NCBI GenBank assembly: GCA_001781125.1
Contig: MFKT01000018.1
Span: forward strand, 4,595-28,594
Direction of reading: 5' to 3'
Source of the DNA: Candidatus Kaiserbacteria bacterium RIFCSPHIGHO2_01_FULL_53_29
GTDB lineage: Bacteria; Patescibacteriota; Minisyncoccia; Phycocordibacterales; UBA2100
DNA length: 24,000 nucleotides
A model generated the notes under the pieces. The model made no database searches, was not told the origin of the DNA, and saw only the letters and a list, made by a program, of their open reading frames with translations. Position numbers and translations under genes: made by a program. Below are positions 2,690 to 22,746 of the stretch, one piece after another; position 1 is the first letter of the stretch, and each line of letters starts with the position of its first letter.

Positions 2690-4048
2690 ATGGCTGTTGC
2701 GTGGCTCAATTCCAAGGGTATACTGCTCGCCATGTGGCAAAAACGGGCTATTGCGCTGCTTATCTTAGCAGTAGGAGTCGGCATCGGCTGGTATGTTTAC
2801 AGTTCGCAACAGGAAGGATCGCGGCCTTTTAAATTGGGCCTCGATCTTTCTGGTGGTACCCAGCTCGTGTATCGCGCGAATCTCGACGCGATCAAGGGGA
2901 GCGACGTCGCGGATTCGATGGCATCTCTGCGCGATACCATCGAGCGGCGCGTGAATCTCTTCGGCGTATCCGAGCCCATCGTGCAGACGGAGCATGCAGG
3001 TACTTTGGCAGGAACTCCGGAGGAGCGTTTAATCGTGGAGTTACCGGGAGTGACCGATACACAAAAGGCGATCGAGCTCATCGGGCAAACTCCTGTCTTG
3101 GAATTTCGGATGCTCAAAGTTGGCGTGGACCAATCAAACATCGCATCGTCAACCGTCAATGAACTTTTCGAACCTGCGGCCATCACTGGCAAGGATCTCA
3201 AGAGCGCCGAACTGCAATTTCAGGGGGGGGCGGGTAGCTTGAACGAAGCGGTTGTCGTCCTTCACTTCAATTCAGAAGGCGCAAAAATATTCGCGGATCT
3301 GACCAAGAACAATATTGATCGCTCGTTCGGTATGTTTCTTGACGGTTCTCCAATCTCCGTCCCGGTAATCCGCGAAGCTATTCCCGACGGTACCGCGGTC
3401 ATCTCGGGTGGCTTCACGCCAGAGGGGGCAAAAGAGCTGGCACGCAATCTGAACTACGGCGCACTGCCCGTCCCAATAGAGCTCATTTCCACACAGACCG
3501 TTTCCGGCACCCTCGGTGAAAAGGCGGTACAAGATGGCATCATGGCGGGGATCTGGGGTGTGGGCGCGGTCGTAATTTTCATGCTCCTGTGGTACCGCTT
3601 GCCGGGGCTTCTTGCGGCAGTCGCGCTCATGCTCTACATTGCCGTGATCCTTGCACTTTTCAAACTCATTCCGGTCACGCTCACGGCAGCGGGCATCGCC
3701 GCGTTCATTCTCTCGATCGGTATGGCGGTGGATGCCAACATTCTCATCTTCGAGCGCACGAAAGAAGAGCTCGAAAAAGGAACGGGCACAGCTGACGCTA
3801 TTCGCGAAGGATTCCACCGCGCGTGGCCGTCGATTCGCGACAGCAATATTTCATCGATGATAACAGCGATTATTCTCTTCTGGTTCGGCACATCGCTTAT
3901 CAAGGGCTTCGCGCTCGTCTTCGGGCTCGGTGTCTTGGTCTCAATGTTGACCGCAATCTCCGTCTCTCGCACGTTCCTCTTTGCGCTCGGTATCGATGCG
4001 AGAACGGGCTTTTCGCGATTCCTTTTCGGTAGCGGCGTCAAATCATAA
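2690..4048 (+). CDS. secD: Protein translocase subunit SecD
   Basis: N-terminal TM helix, periplasmic domain (LGLDLSGGTQLVY) and a C-terminal multi-TM block with MAVDANILIFERTKEE. GGAGGAG lies at 2672-2678. ATG 2732 (MWQKRAIALL...) is an alternative start. Confidence 0.9.
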   Translation: MAVAWLNSKGILLAMWQKRAIALLILAVGVGIGWYVYSSQQEGSRPFKLGLDLSGGTQLVYRANLDAIKGSDVADSMASLRDTIERRVNLFGVSEPIVQTEHAGTLAGTPEERLIVELPGVTDTQKAIELIGQTPVLEFRMLKVGVDQSNIASSTVNELFEPAAITGKDLKSAELQFQGGAGSLNEAVVVLHFNSEGAKIFADLTKNNIDRSFGMFLDGSPISVPVIREAIPDGTAVISGGFTPEGAKELARNLNYGALPVPIELISTQTVSGTLGEKAVQDGIMAGIWGVGAVVIFMLLWYRLPGLLAAVALMLYIAVILALFKLIPVTLTAAGIAAFILSIGMAVDANILIFERTKEELEKGTGTADAIREGFHRAWPSIRDSNISSMITAIILFWFGTSLIKGFALVFGLGVLVSMLTAISVSRTFLFALGIDARTGFSRFLFGSGVKS

Positions 4049-5052: not shown

Positions 5053-5784
5053 ATGGAGCTGAAAACGGTCGGCATCATAGGATACGGCGCTTTCGGCGCG
5101 CTCGCCCATACCCTCATCAAACGTTTCGCGCCATCGGTTACTGTACGCGTACACTCGGAACATCATCCGTCTGATGGCAAACAGTTTTTCTCACTTGAGG
5201 AAACTGCGCAAAGCGACGCGGTTGTGTTTGCCGTTCCGATACATGCGTATGAAGAAGCATTGCGTGAGATAGTGCCGCTGATGCGGCAAGATTCCGTCAT
5301 CGTCGACGTTGCGACCGTAAAGGTTCACACCGTGCAGATGCTGAAGCAGTATGCGCGGGGCAGGCGCTACATCGCGACGCACCCGGTCTGGGGCCCCGAG
5401 AGCTACGAGAAGTGCGCAGGCGATATCCGCGGGTTCCGTATCGTTATGACAGATGGCACACTGAGCATCGAGGAGTACAACGCGCTCACAGCATTTTTGC
5501 GCGGACTCGGATTCGATGTCGTCGAAATGTCAGCCGAGAGCCACGATAAGTACATTGCTGAAACCCTATTTCTTACCCACTTCATCGCGCAAATCTTTGC
5601 GCGAGCCGGCATTAAGCGCACAAAAGTGGATACGGTCTCGTTTGCCAGTCTCATGAATGCCATAGAAGGTGTACAACACGATCAGGAACTTTTCAAAGAC
5701 GTGTATAAGTATAATCCGTACTGTAAGGAAGTTTTGAAGCGCTTCGGAATTGGGGAATCTGAAGTGCAAAAACTTCTGCTATGA
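5053..5784 (+). CDS. tyrA: Prephenate (or arogenate) dehydrogenase
   Basis: N-terminal dinucleotide fold VGIIGYGAFG, then VDVATVK and ATHPVWGPE (HPMFGP-like), typical of the TyrA family. There is a 4-nt overlap with the downstream dehydratase gene. Confidence 0.8.
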   Translation: MELKTVGIIGYGAFGALAHTLIKRFAPSVTVRVHSEHHPSDGKQFFSLEETAQSDAVVFAVPIHAYEEALREIVPLMRQDSVIVDVATVKVHTVQMLKQYARGRRYIATHPVWGPESYEKCAGDIRGFRIVMTDGTLSIEEYNALTAFLRGLGFDVVEMSAESHDKYIAETLFLTHFIAQIFARAGIKRTKVDTVSFASLMNAIEGVQHDQELFKDVYKYNPYCKEVLKRFGIGESEVQKLLL

Positions 5785-6338
5785 GAATCGGTATTTCAGG
5801 AGCCAAGGGTAGCTTCTCGGAAGAGGCTGCGCGAAAATACGCAAGCAAGAATGGGCTTGAAGGATATACGTTGGACTATCTCATTTCGGTCGAGAACGTG
5901 TTGACTGCCCTCGAGAAGGGGACGATCGACCTCGGGATCTTTCCGATAGAGAATCTGACCGGCGGCGCAGTTGCAGAAACAGTCGTGGCAATGCAAAAGC
6001 ACAAATTTCAGAAAAAAAATACGTTCACCATCGATATACGTCAGAACCTTCTTGCCCTCAAAACGACGAAGCGGGAGGAAATTATTACGATCACTTCGCA
6101 TGAGCAAGCGCTGAAGCAATGCGGTGCCTATCTGAAGGCGAAATGGCCAAACGCAAAACTTCAGGAATACGAGGATACTGCTAAGGCTGCAGAAGATCTC
6201 GCGGCAGGGAAGTTGCCGCCATCGACCGCCGTCATCGCCTCGCGTACCGCAGCTGAAGTTTACGGCCTCCAAATTCTTGAGGAATCGATACAGGATCAAA
6301 AAGAAAATCTCACGAGCTTTATTGCTGCGACAAAGTAG
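5781..6338 (+). CDS. pheA: Prephenate dehydratase, catalytic (PDT) domain only; no C-terminal ACT regulatory domain
   Basis: ISGAKGSFSEEAA, GIFPIENLTGGAV, TSHEQALKQCGAYL and ENLTSFI match the PDT domain. The ORF stops at 185 aa, where canonical PheA proteins continue with an ~80-aa ACT domain. Confidence 0.8.
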   Translation: MRIGISGAKGSFSEEAARKYASKNGLEGYTLDYLISVENVLTALEKGTIDLGIFPIENLTGGAVAETVVAMQKHKFQKKNTFTIDIRQNLLALKTTKREEIITITSHEQALKQCGAYLKAKWPNAKLQEYEDTAKAAEDLAAGKLPPSTAVIASRTAAEVYGLQILEESIQDQKENLTSFIAATK

Positions 6339-6699: not shown

Positions 6700-6901
6700 T
6701 AGTTAAAGCCTTTGATTCGGGGGATGGGCCCGAATCGTCTATGGACAAGGCGATCTCTGCATGAGTGGAGATCCGGATTCCTCCGTAAAAAGGATAACTG
6801 ATATCTTACGAGAGCCAGTGAGTTATAAATTAAGGTGGTATCGCGGAAACCCGCCCTTATTGCACAAGGTATGATTGTGCAGTGAGGGCGGCTTTCATTT
6901 T
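6700..6901 (+). promoter_or_regulatory. T-box riboswitch leader, candidate specifier UGG (tRNA-Trp)
   Basis: T-box core AAGGUGGUAUCGCGG lies at 6832-6846. The antiterminator is AAGG/CCUU plus the 7-nt bulge UGGUAUC plus GCGG/CCGC. A competing terminator lies at 6851-6901. A Stem I-like helix spans 6708-6751, with UGG-A at 6742-6745 in its 3' internal loop. Stem II spans 6752-6773, an F-box-like CCGUAA lies at 6783-6788, and Stem III spans 6795-6826. Confidence 0.85.
6851..6901 (+). terminator. Intrinsic terminator of the trp T-box leader
   Basis: CCGCCCU (6851-6857) pairs with AGGGCGG (6885-6891). The inner helix is UGCACAA (6861-6867) / UUGUGCA (6875-6881). The tail is CUUUCAUUUU. Confidence 0.8.
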
Positions 6902-8892: not shown

Positions 8893-9902
8893 ATTCCGTC
8901 GAACTTCTTAACGCATTGATCGAGGGGAAAGACCTGAACGCGTCAGACACGCAGGAGTTTTTTAATGCGGTCGTGCGCGGGGAGATCCCTCCCGCGCAGA
9001 TCGCCGGCATCCTCGTGGCGCTTCGCATCAAAGGGGAGAGTGTTGAAGAGATTGAAGGCTTGGTGCGGGCGATGCGTTCCCACATGGTGAAGGTGGATGC
9101 CCCCGGTGCGATCGATATCGTTGGCACGGGCGGCGGGGAAGTCGATCCGTTCAATATCTCAACTGCGGCGGCCCTTATCGCCACTGGTGCAGGGGCTAAG
9201 CTTGCAAAGCACGGCAATCGGGCGGCGTCAAGCAAGTGCGGTAGCGCTGATGTGCTGGAAGCACTCGGTGTGAATATTCAAGTCTCTGCTGAGCAAGCGT
9301 CGAATGTTTTCAAGAACGCGGGGATCGTTTTTCTATTCGCTCCTACGTACCACCCGGCGACGAAAAACGTGGTTGTCGTACGTAAGGAGTTAAAGATCCG
9401 CACCATCTTCAATGTGCTTGGACCGTTCGCGAACCCCGCGGGAGCGAGGCGTCAGCTCGTCGGCGTTCCAAATCCAGATGTTGCGAAAAAGATGATGGAA
9501 GTGGCGAAGAATCTCGACTACGAGCGCCTCATCATCGTTACGTCAGGGGGAATGGATGAGATAAGTATTGTCGGGAAAACACAGGCACTGGAACTCTCGG
9601 AAGGAAAGATGCGCGAATTCGAGATAGATCCGAGCACGTTCGGTTTCAGCGGAAAGAAAGAAGATCTCGCCAGCGGCGATGCACAGACGAATGCAGCGAC
9701 CATTCGCGACATTCTCAAAGGAGAAAAAGGTCCCAAGCGCGATGTTGTGGTATTGAACGCTGCATACGGTCTCTATGTGGCCGGGGTAGCCAAGACACCC
9801 GAGGAGGGAATAAAAGAGGCTGAAGAATCAATCGACAGCGGCAAGGCGGCGGCGGCGCTCGAAGCCCTGATACGCGAAACGCAGAAGTACAAACCCGTAT
9901 GA
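8889..9902 (+). CDS. trpD: Anthranilate phosphoribosyltransferase
   Basis: DIVGTGGGEVDPFNISTAAALIA, KHGNRAASSKCGSADVLEALG and FNVLGPFANPA are TrpD hallmarks; 337 aa. Confidence 0.95.
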   Translation: MNSVELLNALIEGKDLNASDTQEFFNAVVRGEIPPAQIAGILVALRIKGESVEEIEGLVRAMRSHMVKVDAPGAIDIVGTGGGEVDPFNISTAAALIATGAGAKLAKHGNRAASSKCGSADVLEALGVNIQVSAEQASNVFKNAGIVFLFAPTYHPATKNVVVVRKELKIRTIFNVLGPFANPAGARRQLVGVPNPDVAKKMMEVAKNLDYERLIIVTSGGMDEISIVGKTQALELSEGKMREFEIDPSTFGFSGKKEDLASGDAQTNAATIRDILKGEKGPKRDVVVLNAAYGLYVAGVAKTPEEGIKEAEESIDSGKAAAALEALIRETQKYKPV

Positions 9903-11722
9903 AAGTCCTAAAAGTCATTCCCATTAAAAAACCTCTTGACGCCGAAGTAGCCATTCCCGGTTCTAAAAGTTACACCAACAGAGCGCTCCTCATGGCCGCA
10001 CTTTCGGGAAATACAGTGCGCATCAAAAATCCACTCATAAGTGAAGACACTGAGGCGATGATCGGCTGCCTGCGCGAGCTCGGTATTGCCTGTACGCTCG
10101 AAGACGGGCTCGTTACCGTTGCGGGCGGCATCGATTTGGTCAGTGACCGCGAATACAATCTCGATGCGAATCTCTCTGGGACCACGATCAGATTTATCTC
10201 GGCACTCTCGGCTCTAGTTCCCGGGACAAAGACCATTCATGGTAAGCCTCGTCTCAATGAGCGCCCGATCTACGATCTTGTAGATGCATTGCGGCAGCTC
10301 GGAGCCTCGATCGAGTACCTTGACCGGGAAGGCTACCCGCCTATTCGTATCTCGTCTTCGGAGCTTTCTGCGGGAGTAGTCAAAATGAAAGGAGAAGTAA
10401 GTAGTCAATTCCTGTCGGCACTTCTTATGGTGGCGCCCCGCATCGGCGACGTTGAAATACATATTGAGGGTGAACAGATATCAAAACCCTATGTAGACAT
10501 GACCATCGACGCTATGAAGCAATGTGGTGTTACCGTTGTCAACGATCAGTATGCGAAATATCGAATTACGGCAGGAGCAAAATACAAAATGACCGAGTAC
10601 GTGGTAGAGGGTGATGTTTCAAGCGCGTCCTACTTTGCAGCTATCGCGGCTTTGACCGGATCGCGTATTACGCTCAAGAATATGAATCCGCAGTCAGTAC
10701 AGGCGGATATGGGATTTCTTACCATCCTCGCCGGTATGGGGAACGAGATCACGAATGGGGAGAATGAGATAACGATACAGGGCCGTGGCGTAAGGGCGGT
10801 TGATGTCGACATGCGGGGTTGTCCCGATCAGGTACAGACGCTCGCCGTTCTCTCCGCATTCGTGTCGGGCATTACGTCGATCTCCGGCGTGCGTTCGCTA
10901 CGAGTAAAAGAGACGGAACGTGTCGCGGCGCTTGAGCGGGAACTTGCGAAGATGGGCGTACAGGCAGAATCGACCCCCGACACGCTCACCATCCATGGGC
11001 GTGCGCCGAGGCCCGCGGTGATCGACACCTACTGGGATCATCGGATGGCGATGGCGTTTACGGTTGCGGGGACGAAACTGGAGGGCATGGAGATCAGGAA
11101 TCCGGACGTCGTCGGGAAGACGTTCCCCGACTTTTGGGAGAAACTCAATTCGATCGGCATCAAGACGGAAATTTCCGAGCGGGAACCAAATATTGTGCTA
11201 ATAGGGATGCGCGGAAGCGGGAAGACAACGATCGCAAAAATGCTTTCCACCCGTCTGCAGCGCACCAGCATCGAGATAGACGACGAAGTCGTAAAGAAAA
11301 CAGGAATGAGCATCGCCGATATCTTTGCGCATCACGGAGCGGAATATTTCAGGAACAAGGAGTCCGAAGTAGTGGATGAAATGCTGGCAAAAGAGAATAC
11401 CATCATCTCTACCGGAGGCGGGACCATATTGCGACCCCACAACATCGAACAGCTCAAATACAACGCCATCTGTTTCTGGCTGCGGGCTCCCGTCGAAGCC
11501 CTGGTAGAGAGAATGGAGAGTGATCCCTCATCGTCGCAGCAGCGGCCCACTCTCACGGACAAGGAGACACCCGAGGAAGAAACTGCGGAAGTATTGCGAC
11601 AGCGGGAGGCGTTGTATCAAAAAGCCGCGGATGAGGTCGTGGATACCCAGAATAAGAACCCGGGGGGGATCGTCGAAGAGGTATTACTCAAATTGAAAGC
11701 GCGCGGAATTAACGTACAATAA
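9899..11722 (+). CDS. aroA-aroK: Fusion protein: EPSP synthase (residues ~1-425) plus shikimate kinase (residues ~431-607)
   Basis: The N-terminal part has [47 protein letters not shown] and DHRMAMAF (AroA). From nt ~11189 the sequence [14 protein letters not shown] (Walker A), STGGG and RPTL matches AroK. It is one uninterrupted 607-codon frame. Confidence 0.9.
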
Positions 11723-17150: not shown

Positions 17151-17241
17151 TCAGTGGCGAACTTGCAGAGAGAGAGTTCGTGGTATTCATTGCTCGGACA
17201 AGAGAGTCCGAAATTTCCCGTTAACAGCGAGGGTGAAAGCC

Positions 17242-17733
17242 ATGGCACGCAAAGACAGAGATGCCCGCCTGCAGGCGGAGGCTACCGAAATTGCCCAAAA
17301 TTTGAACGGCTGGGCAATTCACAACGACATTCTCAATGCGGGCGAGGTCATCGTCTACGATGCCCGAGTCGAGAAGATCTCGGTTGTCCGGCCAGCCGAG
17401 AGACCGATGGCGACCGAGGAATTCTCGATCAAAGGCCGGAAGGATCGGGGCGTCGAGTTCGTACGCCCTGCCCGAATGACCTCCGACCAGGTTCAGCGGT
17501 TGTTGAGTAAATTGACACTCAGCTCCCGCGAATTCATGCAGGAATTGCTGGTTGAAAAGCGCAACAATCCTACGAACATCAACGAGTTCGGGAACGCTAA
17601 TGATCATCTTGGACATTTCCGAGGCGTCGTCAACGGAGTATTCCGTAACTGCACGATCGGTGGAAAGCACTACCGTTTGGCGACCGATCGGCGCGCGATC
17701 CAACTTTGGGAGGTGAAGCAGATCAAAAAATGA
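17242..17733 (+). CDS. Hypothetical protein (~163 aa), no family recognised
   Basis: Coding-like RNY/G-first codon pattern. GAGGG (17229-17233) lies 8 nt upstream of ATG 17242; the listed ORF start, GTG 17233, falls inside that RBS. The antisense 160-aa ORF is less coding-like. Confidence 0.55.
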   Translation: MARKDRDARLQAEATEIAQNLNGWAIHNDILNAGEVIVYDARVEKISVVRPAERPMATEEFSIKGRKDRGVEFVRPARMTSDQVQRLLSKLTLSSREFMQELLVEKRNNPTNINEFGNANDHLGHFRGVVNGVFRNCTIGGKHYRLATDRRAIQLWEVKQIKK

Positions 17734-17862
17734 TGCGCCTCGGCATCGAAAACGTGAGATCCGCTTCAGTAGTGGGTCTTGGCGGGGTTGGCGGTAATCC
17801 TCGAAACCGTATGTTTACCGATGTGTATCGGTACTGATGAGCTCAAAAGAGCGAAACATAAA

Positions 17863-21463: not shown

Positions 21464-21499
21464 TTAAAAGCAAACGAGCTCCCTTTCGAGAGCTCGTTT
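21464..21499 (-). terminator. Attenuator terminator (segments 3:4) upstream of aroQ
   Basis: On the minus-strand RNA, AAACGAGCUCUC-GAAA-GGGAGCUCGUUU forms a 12-bp stem (one G.U pair) with a GNRA loop, followed by GCUUUUAA. Confidence 0.75.
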
Positions 21500-21516
21500 C
21501 CGGTATCGTAAGTTGT

Positions 21517-21591
21517 TTACAATAGCGCAGACGAACTCTCGAAGGAGAGTCCATAAAAGAAGCCAAAGAAGCGTGAGGAAATAGTCTGCAT
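21517..21591 (-). CDS. Leader peptide MQTISSRFFGFFYGLSFESSSALL (24 aa) of the aro attenuator
   Basis: The sequence is ATG CAG ACT ATT TCC TCA CGC TTC TTT GGC TTC TTT TAT GGA CTC TCC TTC GAG AGT TCG TCT GCG CTA TTG TAA. Five Phe and one Tyr fall within codons 8-17. The position relative to the 1:2, 2:3 and 3:4 pairings matches trpL/pheL-type attenuators. Confidence 0.65.
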   Translation of the reverse strand: MQTISSRFFGFFYGLSFESSSALL

Positions 21592-21600
21592 ACGTTATTG

Positions 21601-21628
21601 ATAATAGGACTTTCGGCGTTTTTGTCAA
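21601..21628 (-). promoter_or_regulatory. Sigma70-type promoter TTGACA-16 nt-TATTAT for the aro leader
   Basis: On the minus strand, TTGACA lies at 21628..21623 and TATTAT at 21606..21601. The leader ATG is 9 nt downstream of the -10 box. Confidence 0.6.
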
Positions 21629-22365: not shown

Positions 22366-22746
22366 ATGAAACCAGTACATACAGACAAGGCTCCACAGGC
22401 AATAGGGCCGTATTCGCAGGCGGTCGTCGTGGGCGATCTCGTCTTTTGTTCGGGGCAGATCGGGCTTGAGCCTGCAAGCGGGGAAATGGTCGCCGGTGGC
22501 GTGAAAGAGCAGACTGTCCGTGTACTCAAAAATCTCGCCGAGGTTCTTGGGGCTGCGGGGGTCAGTCTTTCCGATGTCGTGAGCGTCAATGTCTATTTGA
22601 AATCCATGAATGATTTTAAAGATATGAACGAGATCTACGCAGCACAATTCGGCGAGCACAAACCCGCGCGTGCCACTGTTGGCGTGTCGGAATTACCGAA
22701 AGGCGCTCTCGTTGAGATCTCGTGCGTCGCTTCTCTTTCTAAGTAG
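22366..22746 (+). CDS. ridA: RidA/YjgF/TdcF-family reactive enamine-imine deaminase
   Basis: MKPVHTDKAPQAIGPYSQAVVVGDLVFCSGQIGL...PARATVGVSELPKGALVEI is collinear with RidA. The 16 upstream codons of the listed ORF overlap the divergent T-box promoter and I drop them. Confidence 0.9.
   Translation: MKPVHTDKAPQAIGPYSQAVVVGDLVFCSGQIGLEPASGEMVAGGVKEQTVRVLKNLAEVLGAAGVSLSDVVSVNVYLKSMNDFKDMNEIYAAQFGEHKPARATVGVSELPKGALVEISCVASLSK

Follow-up and report, generated by a model that had tools for sequence, protein, structure and literature searches.

In E. coli, the pheL/pheA and trpL systems combine a leader ORF (open reading frame) of ~15-25 codons, which in pheL holds a run of Phe codons, with alternative 1:2, 2:3, and 3:4 pairings and an intrinsic terminator, and a stalled ribosome masks segment 1. 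In Corynebacterium glutamicum, a leader peptide with Phe-Tyr-Phe (AroR) precedes the aroF (DAHP synthase) operon, which is induced by Phe limitation through a transcription attenuator that depends on ribosome stalling (Neshat et al., 2014, as summarized in PMC11802643). Here we describe a Phe/Tyr-rich leader in front of the aroQ-aroE-DAHP synthase-aroB operon on a contig of Candidatus Kaiserbacteria bacterium RIFCSPHIGHO2_01_FULL_53_29, a member of the Candidate Phyla Radiation (CPR)/Patescibacteria. The analysed stretch of 24,000 nt, taken at its full length, is referred to as the window. We consider it likely, with a probability of roughly 80%, that this leader controls the operon as a ribosome-mediated (leader-peptide) transcription attenuator, with charged tRNA-Phe and tRNA-Tyr as the signals sensed. 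This reading is supported by comparative and thermodynamic evidence, namely the sequence features, their conservation, and a computed thermodynamic switch. The features, with all coordinates of aro-leader elements referring to the minus strand of the window, are as follows.

21628-21601, minus strand: leader promoter, TTGACA (21628-21623), a 16-nt spacer, and TATTAT (21606-21601), with 11/12 consensus bases.
21591-21517, minus strand: leader ORF MQTISSRFFGFFYGLSFESSSALL, 24 codons plus TAA (21519-21517), its ATG at 21591, 9 nt past the -10 box.
21570-21553, minus strand: regulatory codons 8-13, UUC UUU GGC UUC UUU UAU (F F G F F Y).
21552-21545, minus strand: segment 1 (GGACUCUC), G(G)ACUCUC, the 5' arm of 1:2, beginning at the codon after Tyr13.
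21540-21533, minus strand: segment 2 core GAGAGUUC, pairing with segment 1 over a CUUC loop.
21542-21531, minus strand: full segment 2 UCGAGAGUUCGU, partner of segment 1 or segment 3.
21524-21504, minus strand: middle hairpin UAUUGUAA-ACAAC-UUACGAUA, which holds the stop codon and is nested within the 2:3 antiterminator.
21495-21485, minus strand: segment 3 as first described, GAGCUCUCGAA.
21497-21486, minus strand: segment 3 ACGAGCUCUCGA, partner of segment 2 (antiterminator) or segment 4 (terminator).
21499-21472, minus strand: intrinsic terminator AAACGAGCUCUC-GAAA-GGGAGCUCGUUU, 12 bp, -19.8 kcal/mol, followed by GCUUUU to 21466.
21458-21453, minus strand: TACAAT box between the terminator and aroQ, read by eye.
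21435-17863, minus strand: operon of aroQ (21435-20998), aroE (20859-20017), DAHP synthase type I-alpha (20003-18960), and aroB (18963-17863).

A first-pass annotation of this stretch had described the same promoter, ORF, codon run, gene order, and three segments with their 1:2, 2:3, and 3:4 pairings, and we recover all of these at the same positions. The hairpin and GCUUUU of its terminator are likewise correct, while the end at 21464 is not: GCUUUU ends at 21466, and two further A's had been included. Its 2:3 pairing also stands, with a length of 11 bp corrected to 12 contiguous pairs (UCGAGAGUUCGU with ACGAGCUCUCGA) plus three further pairs and a nested 8-bp hairpin.

In the mechanism that we infer, which extends to the transcription start site, the translation of the ORF, ribosome stalling, the efficiency of termination, and the dominant amino acid, transcription would start ~2-4 nt before the ATG and the 24-codon leader would be translated in a leaderless or near-leaderless manner. 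When Phe and Tyr are plentiful, the ribosome would pass codons 8-13 and reach the UAA; either 1:2 would re-form, or the terminating ribosome would hold the 3' edge of segment 2 and the middle hairpin, and 3:4 would then form, with RNA polymerase terminating at the U-tract (~21474-21466). The first-pass annotation had the ribosome at the UAA mask segment 2, which would apply to its 3' edge only, and the re-forming of 1:2 behind the ribosome probably does most of the work in the replete state. When Phe-tRNA or Tyr-tRNA is scarce, the ribosome would stall on the last aromatic codons FFY (21561-21553), where its downstream reach of ~12-13 nt would cover segment 1; the long 2:3 antiterminator (-29 kcal/mol) would form, segment 4 would stay single-stranded, and the polymerase would enter aroQ.

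The nearest known precedent in function is C. glutamicum aroR, in which, going by the same summary, a short Phe/Tyr leader ORF likewise controls an operon with DAHP synthase. The two are likened by function only, and we expect no kinship in sequence: the aroR run has three aromatic codons vs. five to six of seven here, the operon content differs, and the hosts are Actinobacteria and CPR/Patescibacteria, respectively. Given this precedent, the first-pass annotation, which applied the trpL/pheL logic to the common shikimate pathway, overstated the novelty of this. Unlike pheL, which controls the terminal Phe branch (pheA) and has a start led by a Shine-Dalgarno (SD) sequence, the aro leader precedes genes of the common pathway and has a start without SD that is probably leaderless; moreover, its antiterminator encloses an extra hairpin with the stop codon. 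A leaderless regulatory short ORF (sORF) with a run of codons for one amino acid is also seen in the polycysteine sORFs of mycobacteria, which, going by the accounts in bioRxiv 10.1101/834739 and PMC4633059, are the first cistron of a leaderless transcript whose operon responds to the amino acid; these belong to another phylum and concern Cys, not Phe/Tyr.

For comparison with relatives, loci were chosen by AroQ homology (69-84% identity), blind to the leader, and their contigs were then fetched. In the protein search, the window AroQ is 100% identical to that of Candidatus Kaiserbacteria bacterium RIFCSPHIGHO2_01_FULL_53_29, followed by other Kaiserbacteria and Parcubacteria, and the identical AroQ is encoded on nine contigs that all carry the identical leader. 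A leader is present in 7/12 distinct Kaiserbacteria-type aro loci (the window, L091, L093, L097, L099, L117, and L104). Five additional leaders (L106, L109, L110, L111, and L112) came from a metagenome DNA-pattern scan anchored on segments 2 and 3 only, in which one of the seven matches (L107) was a chance match within a coding region. A scan of species genomes for AroQ gave, among the matches listed, only relatives of at most 61% identity from unrelated phyla, which were of no use for leader comparison, and a scan of viral contigs found nothing. The main-family alignment (A2) holds 12 distinct leaders including the window, and L104, a separate design, is counted apart. Leader peptides of this family include the following.

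L093: leader peptide MQTIQSRFFGFFYGLSFESSSPLL
L097: leader peptide MQTIQSRFFGFFYGLSVESSSALL
L091: leader peptide MHVSGQNSFGFFFYGLSIESSSALL
L099: leader peptide MNRMTSRGFGFFFYGLSVESSSALS
L106: leader peptide MDMRKTAWFTFFFYGLSFESSFARS
L110: leader peptide MNRAFRWFSFFFYGLSFESSFARS
L111: leader peptide MRSAIQVVFAFFFYGLSLESSFARS
L117: leader peptide MVRGALNFFGFWFYELSLESSFARS

In all 12 members, TTGACAA is invariant and TAnnnT is kept at a spacing of 16-17 nt, the ATG lies 6-9 nt past the -10 box (10 nt in L104), and the frame ends at the same stop position (TAA or TAG). The aromatic run is kept as [FW]FxF[FW]FY in 12/12, always directly 5' of segment 1. Both the window (FFGFFY) and L104 (YFSFYF) carry runs of codons for Phe and Tyr. 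These amino acids are products of the pathway, given that tyrA, pheA, and chorismate mutase genes are likewise present in the window. An ATG ORF with at least five aromatic codons in six was found in only 18 of 20,000 dinucleotide-preserving shuffles of the 165-nt leader. Conservation of the peptide in related genomes had been named beforehand by the first-pass annotation as a test of its reading; the peptide is conserved in the 12 leaders, and its logic in L104.

What is conserved in the peptide is uneven. The N-termini are wholly different among subfamilies (MQTISSR, MHVSGQNS, MNRMTSRG, MDMRKTA, MNRAFR, MRSAIQVV, and MVRGALN), with in-frame indels. The aromatic stretch is unpaired in both RNA states, yet it is conserved with synonymous UUC/UUU and UAU/UAC exchanges and aromatic-for-aromatic swaps, whereas two variable bases in the 1:2 loop change freely, one giving all four UCN Ser codons and the other F, I, V, or L. 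Because the unpaired run is conserved while these loop bases vary, the constraint lies on which codons make up the run and on the RNA pairing downstream, not on a functional peptide. Phe codon 17, which lies in the 1:2 loop, was considered as part of the sensor and discarded, since it is F, I, V, or L in relatives.

The pairings are conserved in both states. Over the 12 sequences, 93.8% of the cells are paired in the terminator state (1:2, middle hairpin, and 3:4), compared with 23-46% in slid controls with the partners moved by 1-3 columns, and 91.0% in the antiterminator state (2:3 and middle hairpin), compared with 31-46%. By helix, 99% of the cells are paired in 1:2 and 97% in 3:4, the latter with compensatory changes from C-G to U-A and from U-A to C-G (the U-A to C-G change in L117). 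One position covaries over three segments, being G/A in segment 2, C/U in segment 3, and G/A in segment 4: where the window has G-C and C-G, L110 has A-U and U-A, and L111 and L106 show G.U intermediates. In the middle hairpin, the closing U-A pair is replaced by G-C or G.U. Segment 3 is nearly invariant in the family, as expected because this strand is doubly constrained. The mutually exclusive 1:2 and 2:3 pairings are therefore a conserved property of the relatives. As a side observation, in positions 1-255 of the short contig L090 an L106-type 5' half (MDMRKTAWFTFFFY...) runs into the exact 3' half found in the window (terminator, spacer, and aroQ); this contig is either the product of natural recombination inside the conserved core of segments 1-3 or a chimera made in assembly.

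The alternative folding under constraints that the first-pass annotation had called for gave 1:2 with 3:4 for the free RNA and 2:3 for the masked RNA. The 141-nt leader folds at -48.1 kcal/mol (z = -5.66; 0/200 shuffles were as good), and this fold of the unmasked window RNA consists of 1:2, the middle hairpin, and 3:4. By element, the energies are -9.5 kcal/mol for 1:2, -4.5 for the middle hairpin, -19.8 for 3:4, and -29.4 for 2:3 enclosing the middle hairpin. For the masked state, we blocked the nucleotides, to +13, that a ribosome would cover when the last aromatic codon occupies its A site, a reach known from established toeprint data. The minimum free energy (MFE) structure then is the 2:3 antiterminator in 8/12 leaders including the window, and when the RNA is folded only to segment 3, with segment 4 not yet transcribed, it is 2:3 in 12/12. 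Masking alone thus flips the MFE of the window from terminator to antiterminator, and the stalled ribosome of the computed folds covers segment 1 and not segment 2, in agreement with what had been proposed. In the window MFE, the start-codon region and codons 20-22 also form an outer helix, GCAGAC/GUCUGC, which the model leaves out because it is not conserved, being absent in L091 and L093.

The terminator lies between the leader ORF and the first structural gene, with 30 nt from its U-tract to the aroQ ATG (21435). It was not listed by a simple terminator scan, since the tail after the full 12-bp stem has four T in eight; counted past the G+C core, the tail is UUUGCUUUU and resembles the tails of both T-box terminators in the window. 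Rfam includes a Phe_leader family (gammaproteobacterial pheL), and neither this nor any other leader family, nor any riboswitch, matched the aro leader, whether the gathering score or E values up to 10 were applied. The sole Rfam match in 21480-21549 was MIR4239, a plant miRNA hairpin model, which we dismissed as a chance match to the long 2:3 hairpin.

No SD sequence precedes the leader ATG, and the same holds for almost every gene of the window. A -10-like box (TAnnnT) lies 6-9 nt before the ATG of trpC (16482, minus), trpF (16503, plus), a TauE-family (sulfite exporter-like) gene (13583-12825, minus), chorismate mutase (6683, minus), and ridA (22366, plus); the trpC and trpF starts stand back to back, out of one 20-bp region. 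Because the leader has no SD and its ATG lies 6-10 nt past the -10 box, it is probably translated from a leaderless or near-leaderless mRNA, and the pattern suggests that leaderless mRNAs are widespread in this Kaiserbacteria genome. As in the trpL/pheL/hisL class, the short ORF is promoter-proximal, and a start position that matches other gene starts of the window is kept in 13 leaders, which are putatively translated. When the window and loci L081-L117 were scanned generically for ORFs of 8-45 codons behind a strong promoter, only the leaders described here came up, and no other one in the window.

The locus L104 provides a separate design. Its operon has the order aroA-aroK-aroQ-aroE-DAHPS-aroB-aroC, with an AroQ 69% identical to that of the window. 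The leader consists of TTGACA-17-TATTCT-10-ATG and the peptide MKNIVHKSYFSFYFTTSHIEALVDVYII (abbreviated MKNIVHKSYFSFYF...), with a 1:2 pairing of CCUCG/CGAGG directly past the YFSFYF codons, a 2:3 pairing of 13 bp, and a terminator AACCUC-GACAA-GAGGUU followed by UUUUGCUUUUU that ends just before aroA. Its sequence is unrelated to that of the window leader, and its logic and geometry are the same. In addition, a covariance model built from the main leader family (R1) gave a weak match in L093 (1313-1150, minus), and the same element occurs in L108 (~11579-11416). In L093, this is an Ile-rich leader (TTGACA-17-TATACT-6-ATG, peptide MQTRTQIGISIITPSPGV) whose RNA forms 1:2 and middle hairpins and a terminator, located before ridA-ilvA of the Ile pathway. 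It is a sibling of the aro leader with the same architecture, and is probably leaderless as well. The window ridA has no such Ile leader, and appears to start at 22366, directly past its -10-like box.

Several observations weigh against an attenuator of this kind. The host is uncultured, function is read from sequence, and the transcription start is placed from the promoter alone; any other start leaves the ATG without a recognisable ribosome-binding signal. Five of the 12 sampled loci (L095, L101, L103, L113, and L115) have no leader, aroQ there following directly after gap-rpiB-rpe. Covariation is sparse, the paired columns are mostly invariant, the 12 sequences are closely related, and the controls for the pair counts are not to be read as probabilities, although sparse covariation is expected because the strands must pair two ways. 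The 2:3 helix of L117 has an A/C mismatch, and the free-RNA MFE of L091, L093, L097, L111, and L117 is a nested 1:4 + 2:3 hairpin; kinetics, that is, the co-transcriptional order of folding, must therefore be assumed. In five loci (the window, L091, L093, L097, and L099), a TAYAAT box that lies 17-31 nt ahead of the aroQ start could serve as a bypass promoter. At the terminator itself, no U-tract follows 3:4 in L106, L110, L111, and L117, the 3:4 hairpin of L106 and L110 ends 4-6 nt before the aroQ AUG, and an insertion of ~83 nt splits the U-tract in L109 (~3690-3775) and L112 (~2466-2550). The latter insertion is flanked by a GTTTAC duplication, sits exactly in the U-tract, and moves the U-run away from the hairpin.

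The terminator variants are an argument for an output at the level of translation, in which the same ORF and pairings would serve to occlude the aroQ start region by 3:4 and to free it upon stalling, with termination minor or absent. The absence of a real U-tract in four members and the closeness of the hairpin to aroQ in L106 and L110 would fit such a switch, and as the genes of the window lack SD, local structure should matter for their initiation. However, UUUGCUUUU-type tails like those of T-box terminators follow the hairpin in the window, L091, L093, L097, L099, and L104, the aroQ AUG of the window lies beyond the U-tract and outside the hairpin, and in L111 an insert of 135 nt lies between the hairpin and aroQ. 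We consider translational control unlikely as the general explanation, while the variants without U-tract (L106, L110, L111, and L117) may act on translation or terminate weakly. That the switch is worked by something other than the ribosome (a protein, a small ligand, or an uncharged tRNA), with the ORF incidental to a U-rich tract, draws on the SD-less ORF being only putatively translated and on an orphan 95-aa protein under T-box control, whose gene lies directly upstream in the window and L093. We regard this as very unlikely, since the leaders share ATG, frame, stop position, and aromatic codons despite divergent N-termini, as does the unrelated L104 design, the U-rich tract invariably falls in the Phe/Tyr frame, and an Ile-codon sibling precedes an Ile-pathway operon. 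Furthermore, the leader has only chance-level Rfam matches, no T-box motif, and no run of (G/U)AG repeats on reading the sequence, and it occurs without the 95-aa gene in L091, L097, L099, L117, and L104, the predicted fold of that protein being tautomerase-like and not that of a known RNA binder.

Slightly less probable still is a small hydrophobic protein with a function of its own, followed by a plain terminator and an aroQ expressed from the TAYAAT box. The box is indeed conserved between terminator and aroQ, as is the C-terminal half of the peptide (YGLSxESS); but RNA pairing explains the latter, the variable loop bases alter the amino acid freely, the C-terminus is wholly different in L104, and a plain terminator needs no conserved, energetically matched 2:3 alternative. 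The TAYAAT box itself is absent in L106, L110, and L117, and no -35 box was found for the TACAAT of the window, so we rejected it as a second promoter and keep it as a caveat only; it may be a weak internal promoter that gives basal expression.

Taken as a ribosome-mediated attenuator, the leader is classical in mechanism and works like trpL/pheL; what is new is the lineage, the arrangement, which is probably leaderless, and the family as such, Ile sibling included. CPR/Patescibacteria are usually described as being without amino acid biosynthesis, and the host described here is a member with a complete shikimate, Phe, Tyr, and Trp gene set. In a full-text literature search, no paper joined leader peptide and attenuation with Patescibacteria, none joined Patescibacteria with riboswitch and T-box, and none joined Kaiserbacteria with shikimate, such absence not being proof. 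Tentatively, and at slightly less than even odds, we suggest that this is the first recognised ribosome-mediated attenuation in CPR, with a leaderless ORF on a modular scaffold that was re-targeted (aromatic codons for shikimate, Ile codons for ridA-ilvA) and in some members maybe converted to translational control. If true, ultra-small bacteria that are usually seen as auxotrophic symbionts keep coupled transcription-translation and sense the charging of several tRNAs themselves, and one 24-kb aromatic amino acid supercluster carries two T-boxes and one leader peptide, so that in this Kaiserbacteria lineage the complete set of aromatic pathways would be under layered control sensing tRNA charging. 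An attenuator also implies leaderless initiation, along with the coupling, in Kaiserbacteria. The model R1 is a compact conserved motif for annotating aro operons in CPR metagenomes, and the leader would be a simple synthetic construct for probing, in a heterologous host, how promoters, leaderless starts, and terminators of CPR behave.

Besides the operon, the window encodes tyrA, pheA, chorismate mutase, trpE-trpG-trpD, an aroA-aroK fusion, aroC, trpF, trpC, trpB, and trpA. Its two T-box leaders resemble the aro leader as termination switches that report tRNA charging and in their U-rich tails. For T-boxes, which directly bind uncharged tRNA, Stem I, a specifier, and the T-box motif are required. 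In the aro leader (~130 nt), no Stem I, specifier, or T-box motif GGUGGNACCGCG was found; the motif search matched only upstream of the 95-aa ORF, and the Rfam T-box matches (22299-22117 and 6703-6861) fall outside the leader. The T-box of the Trp branch, also recognized in the first-pass annotation, precedes trpE-trpG-trpD at 6703-6861 (plus; 44 bits, E = 4e-07, below the Rfam gathering score of 93), and has a canonical GGUGGUAUCGCG motif and a terminator to ~6905. Its Stem I (UUCGGG-GGAUGGG-CCCGAA) seems to be very short, the terminal loop carrying a UGG (Trp) codon, and we take it to resemble the reduced Stem I T-boxes of Actinobacteria. The other T-box, at 22299-22080 (minus; 29.7 bits), has a GGUGGCACCGCG motif and a clear terminator, and precedes the 95-aa ORF (21988-21701, minus). 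Its upper Stem I helix covaries with L093, and the conserved internal loop GGUUCGGG suggests UUC (Phe) as its specifier. Downstream of this ORF lies the following feature, which is also present in L093 and closes the T-box/95-aa ORF unit, isolating the leader promoter from it.

21671-21649, minus strand: terminator-like hairpin, GGCGGCAGUCAACGACUGCCGCC then CUUUCAUUUG, with 10 pairs, 8 of them G-C.

The 95-aa protein is an orphan with two homologues in 5.8 billion sequences and five weak matches in a representative library. Its AlphaFold model (pLDDT 87.6) has two beta-alpha-beta repeats, and the best PDB folds are of the tautomerase superfamily and MIF (TM ~0.55-0.6), with the N-terminal Pro absent. 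A role as a TRAP-like attenuation protein was rejected as a required part of the system, the protein being an orphan of tautomerase/MIF-like fold that is absent from most leader loci. The window pheA (5781-6338, plus) encodes a prephenate dehydratase domain only (185 aa), without an ACT regulatory domain, which gave the idea that the 95-aa ORF might be an ACT domain; this was dropped, as no Pfam or NCBIfam family matched and the fold search led to the tautomerase superfamily.

The remaining observations concern the organization of the genes. The aroA-aroK fusion of the window (9899-11722, plus) encodes 607 aa, and the two genes are separate in L104. In many Kaiserbacteria (L095, L101, L103, L113, L115, and L117), a single gene string places the aro genes right after gap-rpiB-rpe, and this order may tie the supply of erythrose-4-phosphate to the shikimate pathway; the leader is kept only in L117, between rpe and aroQ. 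The convergent trpF and aroB of the window are separated by ~700 nt (17151-17862), a stretch whose ORFs (160, 166, and 118 aa) matched no Pfam or NCBIfam family; because trpF and aroB abut in L091, L093, and L097, it is an insertion. Similarly, the aroQ-aroE gap of the window holds an element of ~135 nt (20994-20862, minus) where these genes abut in relatives, and in L111 (~578-440, minus) the same element stands between leader hairpin and aroQ. The element is bounded by imperfect inverted repeats (TATGCCCGG ... CCGGGTATG), its 3' end reaches right up to the downstream ATG at both sites, and it looks like a small mobile insertion similar to a miniature inverted-repeat transposable element (MITE).

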